A stretch of DNA of 64,000 nucleotides from Curvularia clavata (taxonomy: Eukaryota). Position numbers and translations under genes: made by a program. The notes below the pieces were generated by a model. It had not been told where the DNA came from and did no database searches. It saw only the letters and a program-made list of their open reading frames with translations. Shown piece by piece: positions 24,574-43,189 of this stretch; within the stretch, counting starts at the first letter, position 1; each line of letters opens with the position of its first letter. The stretch is taken from the NCBI GenBank assembly GCA_023920165.1, contig CP089277.1, positions 124,001-188,000 on the forward strand. Reading direction: 5' to 3'.

Positions 24574-24584
24574 CGGCTTTTCCG
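24574..24584. promoter_or_regulatory. CGG-N5-CCG Zn2Cys6-type site upstream of GH78
   Basis: CGGCTTTTCCG, the exact reverse complement of the site at 41403. Confidence 0.7.
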
Positions 24585-24742
24585 AAGCATCCATGCGATT
24601 TTACGGCAGGTTCGGCCGCGAGACAAGTTCGTGAAGAGTGACCGCTGTTTCTTCATATCAGTTTAACAGATCAAAAGCAGAAGCGGCGGTTGTTACGTTT
24701 TCCTAAAGGAACCCAACAGTCTCGTTTCAATCCAATCTGACA

Positions 24743-27490
24743 ATGCCTTTTTCATTCCCTCGTTGTGGTATCCATGCTTTTCACGAAGTTTTGGGCATAG
24801 ACACGGACAAAATTCGCTTATACTGGGTGTTGCATTCTAATGATGAGACCTCAGTGCAAGCCGCATATCGGATCGAATTGTCCGATTCCCGGACTTTTGA
24901 TTCGCTGCTTTGGGACTCTGGCAGAATCACTGGCGACCAGCAACGAGACATTCTTTGTGCGCCCGAAGATGGCTTCCTTTCGACAACATTCCATTATTGG
25001 CGCGTAACCGTCTGGGACCAAAATGATATCGAGTCACAGAGTCCCGTCAACGAATTTTTCACTGCTTATCCACGCTCAAGCGGTCTGTTACCGCCCTATA
25101 GCATGAACCAGACATATATGCCACATACTAGCTTGATCTTTCGCACGTGGTTGGAAGACGAGCGAAACAGGTGGAAAGGTATCTGGATTGGAGACAATGG
25201 CGACAAACCCATATACCTACGAAAGTCTTTCCATCTGAAGCAAAAGCCTGCGAGAGCCGTTGTATTTGCGTCAGGGCTAGGACACTTTAACTTCATCTGC
25301 AACGGTGATCCGGCCGCGTCGAATGGACACGTCCTTGCGCCAGGATGGACGAACTACCATAGGACAGTACAATTTGTGGCATATGATGTGTCCGACATCC
25401 TAAAACAGGGTGAGAATGTGCTAGGCGCTCACGTCGGCAACGGTTTCTATGCCGGAGACCAGGGGGACGATCGATTCTTCTGGCCATGTTACGAGGACAA
25501 TACATACGTTAGATATGGCAACGAGCTGTGCTTCTTCGCTGAACTGCATCTGCTCTATGAAGATGGTTCGCGCGATACGATTACAACCGGCTCGGATTGG
25601 AAAGTGCGCAAAAGCGCGACAACATTAGCAAACATATATTCGTCGGAAACAAAAGATTTCAGAGATTTCCCTGTGGGATGGGATACAACTGGGTACCACG
25701 AAGATGATCAGTGGAACAGTGCGACACCAGTCACGGGGCCGCGTGGAAAGCTCAAATACCAGAGTCAGCCACCTGTGATTTTACATGAGACGTTCCAGCC
25801 GATATCATCAGTTGCGTTAGAGCCGGGGGTTGTAAGCTTCGATTTCGGCCAAAATATGGCAACCATGATCAAGATAGAGGTTTCTGGTCCGAAGGGTGCG
25901 GAAGTTGTAGTCCGCTTCTCCGAGACGGTTGGCGACAATGGCCGAGTTTTGATGCCAGACCCGCTTTTCAAACAATTTGAGACTGGGGTATTCTGCAAGT
26001 TCACACTGGCTGGAACAGAATTAGAGACATGGGAGCCTGATTTCTGTTTCACAAGTGCACGATACATTCAAGTTGAGGGTGTTGCTCTCGAAGACGGACA
26101 AGGGCTTCCCGTGGTACGATCTATCGCCAGCAGACACGTCTCCTCGGCCGCTAGACGATTAGGAAAACTCGAAACCGACAAGGAAGATGTCAATGCTATG
26201 ATCAAAATGTGCTATTGGTCGTTCGTCAGTAACCTCTTCAGCTACCACACCGACTGTCCGCAGATTGAGAAGTTCGGCTGGCTCGAAGTAACACATCTTC
26301 TTGCGCCTGCGACCCAATACATTCGAGATATGGAGTCTCTATACTCGAAAATACTGGAAGACATTGTGGACGCGCAGGAGCCGAACGGACTCTGTCCTAC
26401 AATGGCGCCTGAGATCAGGTACATGTGCGGTCCGCTCCACGACACGATTACCTGGGGTGGTGCGGTCGCTATACTGCCTGAAATCCTTCACTTCTACTAC
26501 GATTCAACTCATGTTTTTGAGAAGCTATTCGAGCCATGTGTCCGCTACATGGAGTACATCAGAACGAAGGAAAGGGAGGGTGGACTGATCGAGCATGGCC
26601 TTGGGGATTGGGGGCGTGACATTGCATTTGGTAATAACCAAGCCAACATTGAGACAGCTGTATACTACCGTTGTCTACGCAATATTGAGCGAATGGCGAA
26701 TGAGATGGGGAAATCTGAGGAAGAATGTTGTTTTCGCAATTGGGCTGATCGCATAGCTAAAGTGTACAATGATAAACTTCTTGTCACAGACAAGAAGTTA
26801 TATCCATACGCATTCTACACTTCCCGCGATGATTTAGCCAGTAAAGATCGAAATATGGTAGCGCAAGCTATTGCGCTCCAATTCGATCTCGTTCCTGGAA
26901 ATTTAATCGTTGACGTACAGCGCGCCTTCCTAGACACCTGCGCAGAGGCCAACAACAAGATTCAAGCCGGGGAAATTGGTCTCAAGTTCATTTGGAATAC
27001 TCTCGCCGATCTCGATCGTCCGGACATTGTACTCGAAATGGCACGTCAAGAAGAACACCCATCGTACATGCGCTTCATTCGCCGCGGCGAGACTACCCTC
27101 AACGAGTTCTGGCAAGACGCTTGTCGAAGCAAGTGTCACGACATGCTTGGTACAATCTATGAGTGGTTCTATCAAGCAGTGTTGGGGCTGAAGCCTGAAA
27201 CCAAAGCATACCGAACTTGGAGTGTGAAGCCGCCAATCATGTCAGAATTCAGGCATGTGGTCGGAAGGATGGAGTGTCCATATGGCTTGATTGAGATTGA
27301 GTATACAAAGACAGCAGACGAAAACGTTACAATGAATATCACTGTACCCACAAGTACGATTGGGTATGTGCTGTTGCCGAGACAAGAGAGCGCAGCAGTA
27401 GAGATCAGGAAAGAGAGCAGAATAACAAAAGCACAGGGACAAAGAGTTCAATTGAAACCAGGAAAATACGAGTTACAGATCAAGTTTTGA
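24743..27490 (+). CDS. Alpha-L-rhamnosidase (GH78), no signal peptide
   Basis: 915 aa, intronless. LLWDSG, YWRVTVWD, SGLG, LAPGWTNY, DFGQN, TDCPQIEKFGWL, GLGDW, GETTLNEFW, SKCHDMLG. Confidence 0.93.
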   Translation: MPFSFPRCGIHAFHEVLGIDTDKIRLYWVLHSNDETSVQAAYRIELSDSRTFDSLLWDSGRITGDQQRDILCAPEDGFLSTTFHYWRVTVWDQNDIESQSPVNEFFTAYPRSSGLLPPYSMNQTYMPHTSLIFRTWLEDERNRWKGIWIGDNGDKPIYLRKSFHLKQKPARAVVFASGLGHFNFICNGDPAASNGHVLAPGWTNYHRTVQFVAYDVSDILKQGENVLGAHVGNGFYAGDQGDDRFFWPCYEDNTYVRYGNELCFFAELHLLYEDGSRDTITTGSDWKVRKSATTLANIYSSETKDFRDFPVGWDTTGYHEDDQWNSATPVTGPRGKLKYQSQPPVILHETFQPISSVALEPGVVSFDFGQNMATMIKIEVSGPKGAEVVVRFSETVGDNGRVLMPDPLFKQFETGVFCKFTLAGTELETWEPDFCFTSARYIQVEGVALEDGQGLPVVRSIASRHVSSAARRLGKLETDKEDVNAMIKMCYWSFVSNLFSYHTDCPQIEKFGWLEVTHLLAPATQYIRDMESLYSKILEDIVDAQEPNGLCPTMAPEIRYMCGPLHDTITWGGAVAILPEILHFYYDSTHVFEKLFEPCVRYMEYIRTKEREGGLIEHGLGDWGRDIAFGNNQANIETAVYYRCLRNIERMANEMGKSEEECCFRNWADRIAKVYNDKLLVTDKKLYPYAFYTSRDDLASKDRNMVAQAIALQFDLVPGNLIVDVQRAFLDTCAEANNKIQAGEIGLKFIWNTLADLDRPDIVLEMARQEEHPSYMRFIRRGETTLNEFWQDACRSKCHDMLGTIYEWFYQAVLGLKPETKAYRTWSVKPPIMSEFRHVVGRMECPYGLIEIEYTKTADENVTMNITVPTSTIGYVLLPRQESAAVEIRKESRITKAQGQRVQLKPGKYELQIKF

Positions 27491-41544: not shown

Positions 41545-42816
41545 ATGGCGGAGAATGACCAATCCTTTCGACAATTCTTACCGGACCTAACACAACCACG
41601 ATTCGCAACTTTGCAAACGCAAGATGCCCACGAATACGCATCAGCTTTTAAAGAGAATGCTGAACCACCATGGGTCTATGCGTTGTGGCGTCATTGGAGG
41701 CAGCTATTCGAAGAGCCATTCCGAGGAATAACGAATGATGGCGTGGTTCGGCCTGGTCTCTTTCCACTACAAGACGAGGGTGTACCTGTTGCCCATGTAG
41801 CAAGTGTCGCTCATTGTCTACTATCATTATTGGACGATTCTCAGAAGCAACGCGTTGTTCATCACATTGATTCACCTGAGTGGCGCTCATGGTCGAATCC
41901 AGAGTTTCTCCTGAGCGATAAGGGCATCCGACTTGATGAGGTGGCTTTGGATATACGCGACGCCGCCTTGAAGTTACTAGAACACACATTATCACCCGAG
42001 GGATATCAGAAAGCTGTGGGAGCGATGCGTATCAATGGGTTTCTTGGTCGCCTCGTAAACGCACCGCGCATATGTAACGAGTTTTCGTACAACTTGGCAC
42101 TATTTGGAACACCATCAGCCATTGCGCCTTGGGGCTTCTCATTCTACGGTCACCACCTTTGCCTCAACATTCTACTCTATAAAAACCAAATAGTCATATC
42201 TCCCTGCTTTACTGGAGCTGAACCCAACGTCATCGACGATCCGTGTGACTCCTACGCCGGCACGCGCATTCTGCAAGAAGAGGAACGTCTTGGTCTGAAG
42301 CTCATGCAATCACTATCATCGCAACTGCAAGACAATGCACAGGTTTACAAGCTGCTTCACGACCCATCCATGCCACATGGGCGCTGGAATCATGACGACC
42401 AGCGCCATTTGTGTGGCGCCTATCGAGATAATCGTGTGGTGCCATATGAAGGTGTCAAGGTCACCGATATGAGCAACACTGCTCAGCAGCTCGTCACCTC
42501 AATACTTTCCGAATTTCTCCTGTACCTTCCAAGCAAAGCTCGCAGGATGCGCTTGAAGCAAGCCGAATCCTGGTACCATGAAACATATTTTTGCTGGATT
42601 GGCGGGTATGACAAAGACGATGCCTTTTACTATCGCATACAAAGTCCAGTCATTGTTGTCGAGTTTGACCATCATTCGGGGGTGTTTTTGAATAATAAAA
42701 CTCCTGCGAAGTTTCACATCCACACCATTTTACGAACACCCAATGGTGGGGATTATGGTATGGCTATCCGGCCATCGATGGAAAGCATGTCACAACGATT
42801 CGTTTGGGAGAAATAA
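41545..42816 (+). CDS. DUF3500-family protein (His-rich, probable metalloenzyme/dioxygenase)
   Basis: WSNP, LSPEGY, FGTPS..PWGFSFYGHHLCLN, YYRIQSPVIVVEFDHH, HIHTILRTPNGGDYG. Intronless 423 aa. Confidence 0.85.
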   Translation: MAENDQSFRQFLPDLTQPRFATLQTQDAHEYASAFKENAEPPWVYALWRHWRQLFEEPFRGITNDGVVRPGLFPLQDEGVPVAHVASVAHCLLSLLDDSQKQRVVHHIDSPEWRSWSNPEFLLSDKGIRLDEVALDIRDAALKLLEHTLSPEGYQKAVGAMRINGFLGRLVNAPRICNEFSYNLALFGTPSAIAPWGFSFYGHHLCLNILLYKNQIVISPCFTGAEPNVIDDPCDSYAGTRILQEEERLGLKLMQSLSSQLQDNAQVYKLLHDPSMPHGRWNHDDQRHLCGAYRDNRVVPYEGVKVTDMSNTAQQLVTSILSEFLLYLPSKARRMRLKQAESWYHETYFCWIGGYDKDDAFYYRIQSPVIVVEFDHHSGVFLNNKTPAKFHIHTILRTPNGGDYGMAIRPSMESMSQRFVWEK

Positions 42817-43159
42817 ACGAGTCGCATACTCGTAAAGTTTGGATATGTCACAGCTACTATATCATCATGGTTTACGAAACAGCGAATTTTGAGTCAAATA
42901 CTATCTTCCAAATCCATGTGCTGACGGCTCTGCTCAGTCGTGTGACGTTATCCAATGTCAAGTTTGACGCCTCTAGTATGGAGAACGGCACAGCTACCCT
43001 CGGGGTTACCATCTTCATAGTCCATCTTTCGCTGGGATTTCCGTGTGATTGTTCGAAACCCAGCACCATAGTAACTTTGTTATGCGTACCAGAGGATACC
43101 AAGGTTCGCGGCATTACAGTCTCGGCAACTCGAACGCGTCCGCTTCGTGTTCAGTTGTT

Positions 43160-43189
43160 CGGGTATTCCGGGCTTCGGCGGATATGCCG
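43160..43189. promoter_or_regulatory. Two CGG-N5-CCG sites upstream of GH3
   Basis: CGGGTATTCCG (43160) and CGGATATGCCG (43179). Confidence 0.72.

Follow-up and report, generated by a model that had tools for sequence, protein, structure and literature searches.

The 64,000-nucleotide stretch of Curvularia clavata DNA analysed here (contig CP089277.1, positions 124,001 to 188,000 of the forward strand; "the window", with positions counted from its first letter) carries nine genes that probably form a coherent catabolic cluster for flavonol glycosides, and upstream of every one of the cluster genes (n = 9) lies the short DNA word CGGAAWWKCCGG. The results described below confirm that the motif in question, an inverted pair of CGG triplets at a fixed spacing of five bases, is a real, highly enriched and cluster-restricted cis-element. 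From left to right, the cluster comprises a single-exon gene for a GH78 alpha-L-rhamnosidase (24743..27490, plus strand; five rhamnosidase Pfam domains, best E 1.4e-89); a gene for a bicupin quercetin 2,3-dioxygenase, or quercetinase (29476..30581, minus strand, with an intron at 30229-30278; Cupin_2), whose best matches in the PDB are quercetin 2,3-dioxygenases (2h0v and 8hfb, E 2e-16; 1gqg, E 6.7e-07); a gene for an alpha/beta-hydrolase esterase, a candidate depside esterase (30954..32032, plus strand; BD-FAE, Abhydrolase_3 and Peptidase_S9), the start codon of which may be at 30864 instead of 30954; an intron-containing gene for a sugar-type major facilitator superfamily (MFS) transporter (32580..34284, plus strand; Sugar_tr, E 9e-34); a gene for an FAD-dependent aromatic monooxygenase of salicylate-hydroxylase-like type (34943..36536, minus strand; FAD_binding_3); a three-exon gene for a conserved protein of 115 amino acids (36967..37421, plus strand; no Pfam domain, serines at 62 and 64); a gene for a Zn2Cys6 transcription factor of about 700 amino acids (37790..40134, plus strand; Zn_clus), with at least five introns and with exon 1 ending at 38704; a DUF3500 gene (41545..42816, plus strand; PF12006, E 4e-118; PMC10832562); and a gene for a GH3 beta-glucosidase with a PA14 insert and an Fn3-like end (43265..45806, plus strand; Glyco_hydro_3, Glyco_hydro_3_C, PA14 and Fn3-like).

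Contigs of the public run X21 skip GT..AG stretches of 44-57 bases in the genes for the quercetinase, the monooxygenase and the transcription factor, and in a small gene at 27577-28145, which confirms introns in all four. In the quercetinase gene the X21 contig skips 50 bases with CT..AC ends and extends to 30694; the monooxygenase gene has introns at 35243-35298, 35489-35539 and 35588-35637, and its spliced X21 contig extends to 36646. Genes for the enzymes of a single pathway thus adjoin those for a transporter and one regulator, and pathway-specific catabolic clusters with an in-cluster activator are familiar in fungi (qa/qut, alc and prn). The 115-residue protein has 18 homologues of 114-123 amino acids, none with a Pfam domain. 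In published clusters for 1,2,3,5-tetrahydroxybenzene catabolism, a flavin monooxygenase and a DUF3500 protein are accompanied by a short protein that lacks a recognised domain and carries Ser64, and often by MFS and transcription-factor genes (PMC10832562); the 115-residue protein is a candidate for this short protein, as judged from its sequence, its serines at 62 and 64 fitting the conserved Ser64. The present cluster differs from the published ones in adding the upper steps of flavonol breakdown (GH78, GH3, quercetinase and esterase) and in having no FAH-like gene among the open reading frames of the window that were scanned.

The original prediction listed eleven positions at which the pattern CGG-N5-CCG (CGGNNNNNCCG) would mark all seven promoters of the cluster, and a pattern search of the window locates the pattern at all eleven. 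The seven promoter regions, five one-way and two divergent, serve the nine genes. The GH78 promoter has the site CGGAAAAGCCG (24574..24584, minus strand), centred 164 bp upstream of the start codon, and a weak site lacking the first C, GGATAATCCG (24490..24499, plus strand), 248 bp upstream. The divergent quercetinase/esterase promoter has CGGAAATGCCG (30809..30819, plus strand) and CGGAATATCCG (30833..30843, plus strand), the latter fitting the motif on both strands, and the MFS promoter has CGGATTGTCCG (32337..32347, minus strand), 238 bp upstream of the start codon. In the divergent promoter at 36537-36966, between the monooxygenase and short-protein genes, CGGTACGACCG (36685..36695), which fits the generic pattern and falls outside the refined motif described below, adjoins CGGAATTTCCG (36696..36706, plus strand), a perfect palindrome around a central T, and is followed by a second copy of CGGAAATGCCG (36731..36741, minus strand). 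The transcription-factor gene has CGGAATGGCCG (37734..37744, minus strand), centred 51 bp upstream of its start codon. The DUF3500 gene has a second copy of CGGAAAAGCCG (41403..41413, plus strand), 137 bp upstream, and a weak site lacking the first C, GGATGATCCG (41433..41442, plus strand), 107 bp upstream; and the GH3 gene has CGGAATACCCG (43160..43170, minus strand), 100 bp upstream, CGGATATGCCG (43179..43189, plus strand), 81 bp upstream, and the weak site CGGAAATCCCAG (43032..43043, minus strand), 228 bp upstream, with one mismatch to the 12-base form of the motif. Counting weak sites, six of the seven promoter regions contain two or three sites. Site centres lie 51-277 bp upstream of start codons, and the quercetinase and monooxygenase sites lie beyond the 5' ends of the corresponding X21 contigs (30694 and 36646).

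The sites share a precise form. All 11 promoter sites have the same six CGG/CCG bases, in inverted orientation and with one fixed spacing. The more specific pattern CGGAWWNNCCG, which most sites had been noted to fit on one strand, is matched by 10 of the 11 promoter sites, all on the predicted list, with 36685 the exception, and by none of the eight other CGG-N5-CCG sites in the window (one at 39096, inside the coding sequence of the transcription factor, and seven outside the cluster); its 12 strand matches fall at 10 distinct positions, all in cluster promoters, and there are no others in the 64 kb. Aligning the ten sites in a common orientation yields the consensus CGG A A/t W w K CCG g, in which positions 4-6 are A, A/T and A/T in 10 of 10 sites, partly through the way the sites were selected, and position 12 is G in 7 of 10; we write the motif overall as CGG-AAWWK-CCG(G). 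Apart from the palindromic CGGAATTTCCG, most sites combine a strong half, CGGAA, with a minimal half, CCG, and which way the strong half faces with respect to the gene varies among sites. The word GCTTCGG (CCGAAGC) directly adjoins three motif sites, with CCGAAG at a distance of 4 bp from one more (among the sites 24574, 30809, 41403 and 43160); 7 of 26 occurrences of CCG-N0-AAG are in the promoters, and the word could represent a third half-site or else a second element.

To place these counts against expectation we used the 64-kb window as the only background, 100 dinucleotide-preserving shuffles of it as controls, and a promoter set of seven regions fixed from gene starts alone (3,232 bp in total). 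The pattern CGG-N5-CCG occurs 19 times in the 64 kb, compared with 8.63 +/- 2.74 in shuffles (largest 15; 0 of 100 reach 19). CGGAWWNNCCG has 12 strand matches, compared with 1.25 +/- 1.29 expected (largest 6 in shuffles), and the 12-mer CGGAAWWNCCGG, with up to one mismatch, has 12 matches, compared with 2.66 expected, all within the cluster and including the weak site at 43032. In the promoter set, 11 occurrences of CGG-N5-CCG are seen and 0.43 are expected at the rate found outside the seven regions (8 sites in 60,768 bp), corresponding to a Poisson P of 1.4e-12. Enrichment over background, named in advance as a test of the original prediction, is thus borne out both by the shuffles and by the Poisson comparison, and the earlier estimate of about one chance site in the promoters proves slightly generous. 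A scan that assumed no motif and scored every pair of trinucleotides at spacers of 0-12 bases (27,040 dyads) ranks CGG-N4-TCC first (15 of 35 occurrences in promoters; P 4e-11) and CGG-N5-CCG second (11 of 19; P 3e-10). Each of the two occurs in every one of the seven regions, and the ten best-ranked dyads without exception are parts or shifted versions of the same motif.

Spacing and distribution within the window are also specific. Between 24000 and 43400 the inverted CGG/CCG pair occurs 12 times with a spacer of five bases, with seven further occurrences outside this interval; the other spacings from N0 to N15 occur 1-4 times inside it, except N8, which occurs 9 times. We rejected the N8 excess as a signal, its sites being mostly in coding sequence (five coding, one in the 3' region of the transcription-factor gene, one upstream of the MFS gene and two overlapping the N5 site at 43179), and among spacings N0-N15 only N5 is enriched in promoters. 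Of the cluster genes, 9 of 9 have the refined motif in the 500 bp upstream of their start, compared with 0 of the 15 other genes of the window, whose starts are approximate, as first ATGs of long open reading frames (Fisher P 8e-07); for the generic pattern the counts over the same distance are 9 of 9 and 2 of 15. As predicted, the motif ties in the distant GH78 gene, which lies 6 kb from the next marked promoter, and sets the borders of the cluster, ending at GH78 on the left and at GH3 on the right, with the P450 gene to the left and the Na/Ca-exchanger gene to the right free of it. It is also missing, again as predicted, upstream of a small gene inside the cluster that had been placed at 27722-28103 and that we model at 27577-28145 on the minus strand. 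The spliced product of this gene, about 110 amino acids with a hydrophobic leader and many cysteines, looks secreted from its sequence, and a 46-base intron is seen in both X21 and X23 contigs. Similarity between promoters is limited to matches of 9-19 bp (best E 0.11), the best matches being the motif itself. Since the seven promoters share no extended similarity, the sites are not copies of one segment, and promoter duplication as the source of the motif was rejected. We conclude that the motif is a real, highly enriched cis-element of inverted-CGG type restricted to the cluster.

Inverted CGG triplets are the canonical binding mode of Zn2Cys6 proteins, and the only Zn_clus protein found in the window is the in-cluster factor (PF00172, E 1.9e-07). 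Near its N-terminus the factor has the six-cysteine motif CX2CX6CX5-12CX2CX6-8C, and the cysteines concerned (C24, C27, C34, C40, C43 and C50) show no variation in an alignment of 9 sequences or in one of 17. Gal4 residues 8-65 (PDB 3coq/1d66) can be aligned with the zinc cluster, linker and heptad stretch of the factor, parts that are nearly invariant in eight orthologues from Dothideomycetes, Sordariomycetes and Eurotiomycetes, with Y66, L70, E71 and L77 conserved in the alignment; the same eight orthologues confirm the start codon. Homologues with 41-75% identity are found in Bipolaris, Periconia, Fusarium, Colletotrichum, Verticillium and Aspergillus. The best matches are from Bipolaris oryzae (75%), the Logan-derived protein P0002 (68%), Periconia macrospinosa (66%) and Paraphaeosphaeria sporulosa (64%), and the relatives are Pleosporales. 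The fungal-specific middle homology domain, PF04082, has no match at E <= 0.01 on the exon pieces of the window, and most of the 56 homologues carry it. A predicted homodimer of residues 15-100 scores 0.11 against a mark of 0.32, which speaks neither for nor against dimerization.

Our favoured reading, which we consider likely, is that the Zn2Cys6 factor of the cluster recognises the motif, probably in dimeric form, and activates the cluster and possibly its own gene. From co-location of gene and sites, together with what is known of Zn2Cys6 proteins, we infer that the factor binds the motif, and we infer likewise the inducer, dimeric binding, and activation in preference to repression. In the proposed mechanism, CGG-AAWWK-CCG(G) would be the upstream activating sequence of the nine-gene cluster for flavonol glycosides of the rutin/quercetin type; the factor (start codon at 37790) would bind it as a probable homodimer, in which each zinc cluster contacts one triplet of the inverted CGG pair across the five-base spacer; and, in the presence of a flavonol or a breakdown product, the factor would activate all seven promoter regions. 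The motif-bearing stretch CGGAATTTCCGG is a candidate target for the DNA-binding domain of the factor (residues 1-100). Possible autoregulation is suggested by a single site, the one centred 51 bp upstream of the start codon of the factor.

Rutin consists of quercetin, glucose and rhamnose, and the gene products suggest an order of steps for its breakdown. The MFS transporter would import the glycoside, GH78 would take off the rhamnose and GH3 the glucose, the quercetinase would open the C ring to give a depside, and the esterase would release protocatechuate and 2,4,6-trihydroxybenzoate from it. The flavin monooxygenase would then produce 1,2,3,5-tetrahydroxybenzene, the DUF3500 protein would cleave its ring, and the 115-residue protein would act on the resulting lactone. 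Inspection by eye finds no obvious signal peptide in GH78, GH3 or the quercetinase, which fits uptake of the intact glycoside through the MFS transporter. The lower steps have a published counterpart: 2,4,6-trihydroxybenzoate feeds the 1,2,3,5-tetrahydroxybenzene pathway, and growth of Aspergillus nidulans on 2,4,6-trihydroxybenzoate requires the DUF3500, short-protein and FAH-like genes and does not require the gallate monooxygenase (PMC10832562), which leaves room for a dedicated monooxygenase such as that of the cluster.

Several observations weigh against the proposed mechanism or qualify it. The linker between zinc cluster and heptads is of about the length of that in Gal4, and Gal4 reads an 11-base spacer, so the N5 spacing does not follow from simple analogy. 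The site in the promoter of the factor, at 51 bp from the start codon, may be within the 5' untranslated region and hence transcribed. The refined consensus was derived from the sites on which it is tested, a circularity from which the generic pattern and the dyad scan are free. The Botrytis cinerea Zn2Cys6 factor BcSpd1 binds a CGGN8CCG fragment of a quercetinase promoter (PMC9280406), indicating that quercetinase genes can answer to other regulators. A metagenome scan with the DUF3500 protein returned one locus (protein 67% identical), and the promoter of its DUF3500 gene, the only related promoter read, has no CGG-N5-CCG upstream; the gene there is not clustered, its neighbour encoding a Mediator subunit, and its site-free promoter therefore says little either way. 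A contig scan with the alignment of the factor returned only a paralogue 30-33% identical, at a locus (L002) on a fungal contig within a bacterial metagenome-assembled genome (MAG), and there enrichment is weak, with 6 CGG-N5-CCG in 13 kb as compared with 10 in the adjoining 40 kb. Five of the sites at L002 are intergenic, and two of these five are identical to sites of the window; CGGAWWNNCCG has 313 strand matches in the 7.3-Mb mixed assembly concerned. We rejected the motif count at L002 as too weak to support conservation.

The alternative that deserves most attention is that a different Zn2Cys6 factor encoded elsewhere, perhaps one that governs aromatic or plant-phenolic catabolism more broadly, binds the motif, and that the in-cluster factor binds a different element or serves only as a co-regulator. 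We regard this as unlikely, though it has arguments in its favour: the link between the in-cluster protein and the site is one of proximity alone, the linker of its DNA-binding domain resembles that of Gal4, which reads N11, an unlinked Zn2Cys6 factor binds the B. cinerea quercetinase promoter (PMC9280406), and CGG-N5-CCG is part of the motif of Neurospora crassa CLR-1 (as cited in bioRxiv 10.1101/2021.06.08.446897), so that the spacing is used by other factors. However, the dyad scan of the seven promoters brought out no second dyad independent of the motif, none of 15 other promoters of the window contains the motif, those of a second catabolic-looking group at 6-16 kb included, and a site is present upstream of the transcription-factor gene itself. 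The conserved A/T-rich spacer with GGAA, in which positions 4-6 are A, A/T and A/T in 10 of 10 oriented sites, in part a product of site selection, and the presence of CATTCC in or beside sites 37734 and 36696, would also be compatible with a protein of another class, such as a TEA/ATTS-type factor (CATTCC), that reads a GGAA/TTCC core to which the flanking C and G are incidental. This is a far more doubtful reading, because the enriched feature is the six invariant CGG/CCG bases at exact spacing in 11 of 11 sites, few sites lack the first C (24490 and 41433), and CATTCC is absent from most sites.

Least probable of all is that the pattern is without function and arose by chance, from base composition or through copying of a single ancestral promoter segment. 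Fungal DNA contains CGG-N5-CCG fairly often, as the 10 occurrences in 40 kb beside L002 and the 7 in the 44 kb of the window outside the cluster attest, but the count in the window is reached in none of the shuffles, the Poisson comparison with the window background gives the P of 1.4e-12 reported above, the motif supplies the first two ranks among 27,040 dyads, and the promoters have no extended similarity. We conclude that a functionless pattern is all but refuted, and we retain binding and activation by the in-cluster factor as the likely explanation.

Queries with the DUF3500 protein and the quercetinase had no match in the genome containing L002, and a scan of viral contigs for orthologous loci found nothing. 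In four public runs compared with positions 24001-44000 there are 3,263 differences, and none of the 40 differences listed is in a site; an X11 contig that is 82% alike ends at 36532, four bases from the start codon of the monooxygenase gene. The Verticillium dahliae homologue of the factor is VDAG_02539, and the flavonol-induced quercetinase VdQase of this species is VDAG_02532 (PMC4462102); a difference of seven locus tags hints at synteny. The B. oryzae homologues of the factor and of the short protein may share one scaffold, 25,367 bp being the longest contig reported for both. As to the origin of L002, the locus (like L009 and L010) is on a 198-kb contig (C126 of genome G001) that is filed as "Deltaproteobacteria MAG" and is fungal, with genes for a Zn2Cys6 factor with Fungal_trans, a scytalone-dehydratase-like protein, a flavin monooxygenase, a GST and an MFS protein. 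Five further Zn-cluster matches are on other contigs, and the bin looks contaminated.

Other features of the window lie beside the subjects above. Between the 3' end of the transcription-factor gene and the DUF3500 promoter, about 1.1 kb (40309-41400) has no Pfam match and has some X21 contig cover, and may contain a small gene that is not annotated or a long untranslated region. Immediately upstream of the GH78 promoter, depth in run X22 over 24001-24667 is 215.8, as compared with 2-16 in other bins, an X21 contig joins opposite strands at 24194/24278, and there are several loose ends at 24073-24324; together these suggest a repeated or inverted element. At 6071-16124 there are genes for a sugar-type MFS protein, a short-chain dehydrogenase, an alpha/beta hydrolase, a zinc alcohol dehydrogenase and an RPE65-type (carotenoid/stilbene) oxygenase; this group has no refined motif upstream and would therefore be a separate regulon. 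Genes of the Na/Ca-exchanger family flank the region (18450-19454 and 46097-47380), and we rejected the idea that they are close paralogues (BLASTP E 0.083). A tandem repeat at 62127-62789 (4.7 copies of a 141-bp unit, 84% matches) is contained in long reading frames open on both strands.

Among Zn2Cys6 homodimers, Gal4 reads CGG-N11-CCG, Ppr1 CGG-N6-CCG and Put3 CGG-N10-CCG. The cluster sites resemble theirs in being inverted CGG pairs at a fixed spacing upstream of pathway genes, and the factor resembles these proteins in having a zinc cluster, a linker and a heptad stretch that can be aligned with Gal4; the predicted site differs in its five-base spacer, in the preference for AAWWK within it and in its unequal halves (CGGAA as compared with CCGG). 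The N. crassa CLR-1 site, CGG-N5-CCG-N-CGG (as cited in bioRxiv 10.1101/2021.06.08.446897), likewise has inverted CGG triplets with a five-base spacer. However, the third CGG of that site, one base past CCG, is present in 0 of 11 cluster sites (a CGG directly follows site 36685, and lies 4-5 bases after 41403 and 43160), and the CLR-1 regulon consists of cellulase genes, whereas that of the cluster would consist of flavonol genes.

By gene content, the cluster can be likened to Aspergillus flavus "cluster 32", in which a Zn2Cys6 gene (AFLA_096370) accompanies genes for a quercetin dioxygenase (AFLA_096260) and a salicylate hydroxylase; overexpression of the Zn2Cys6 gene raised transcripts of both enzymes, and an A. 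flavus strain degrades rutin to quercetin and then to a depside (PMC7663156). "Cluster 32" differs in being treated as a secondary-metabolite/effector locus that includes an NLP gene, and in having no binding motif in the portion of the paper available (PMC7663156); no NLP gene was seen in the window cluster, and the nearest Aspergillus match to the factor, from A. sergii, has 42% identity. BcSpd1, which regulates the BcQdo promoter positively and binds it in electrophoretic mobility-shift assays, is like the proposed factor a Zn2Cys6 protein on a quercetinase promoter, but its site is CGGN8CCG and the available portion of the paper has no cluster-wide motif (PMC9280406); since no Botrytis protein is among the 56 matches to the factor, BcSpd1 is probably another protein. 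The paper on the tetrahydroxybenzene clusters, in the portion available, names no regulator site (PMC10832562), and we found no published binding motif for a flavonol-cluster regulator in the literature, supplementary files left aside.

Regulation of a cluster by its own Zn2Cys6 factor through an inverted-CGG site is well known, and the principle is textbook; what has value is the specific assignment rather than any novelty of mechanism. Rutin, quercetin and other flavonols serve plants in defence, and plant-colonising fungi have to cope with them; quercetinase genes have been tied to virulence in Verticillium (PMC4462102) and Botrytis (PMC9280406), yet how the whole flavonol pathway is encoded and controlled is only patchily known. 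The proposed regulon is compact, with nine genes, one regulator and one motif; it proposes a full set of genes for the route between uptake of the glycoside and cleavage of the ring, predicts where the newly described tetrahydroxybenzene pathway obtains its substrate, and supplies a precise 12-base site for testing. More tentatively, and with chances that we put slightly below even, the factor and the CGGAAWWKCCGG site may constitute a conserved master switch by which plant-associated ascomycetes control flavonol catabolism, in a regulon that joins the rutin and 1,2,3,5-tetrahydroxybenzene pathways. If this is true, the missing 2,4,6-trihydroxybenzoate hydroxylase would be assigned, the DUF3500 and short proteins would gain a natural source of substrate, and the motif would predict flavonoid-responsive genes genome-wide in many plant pathogens and endophytes.

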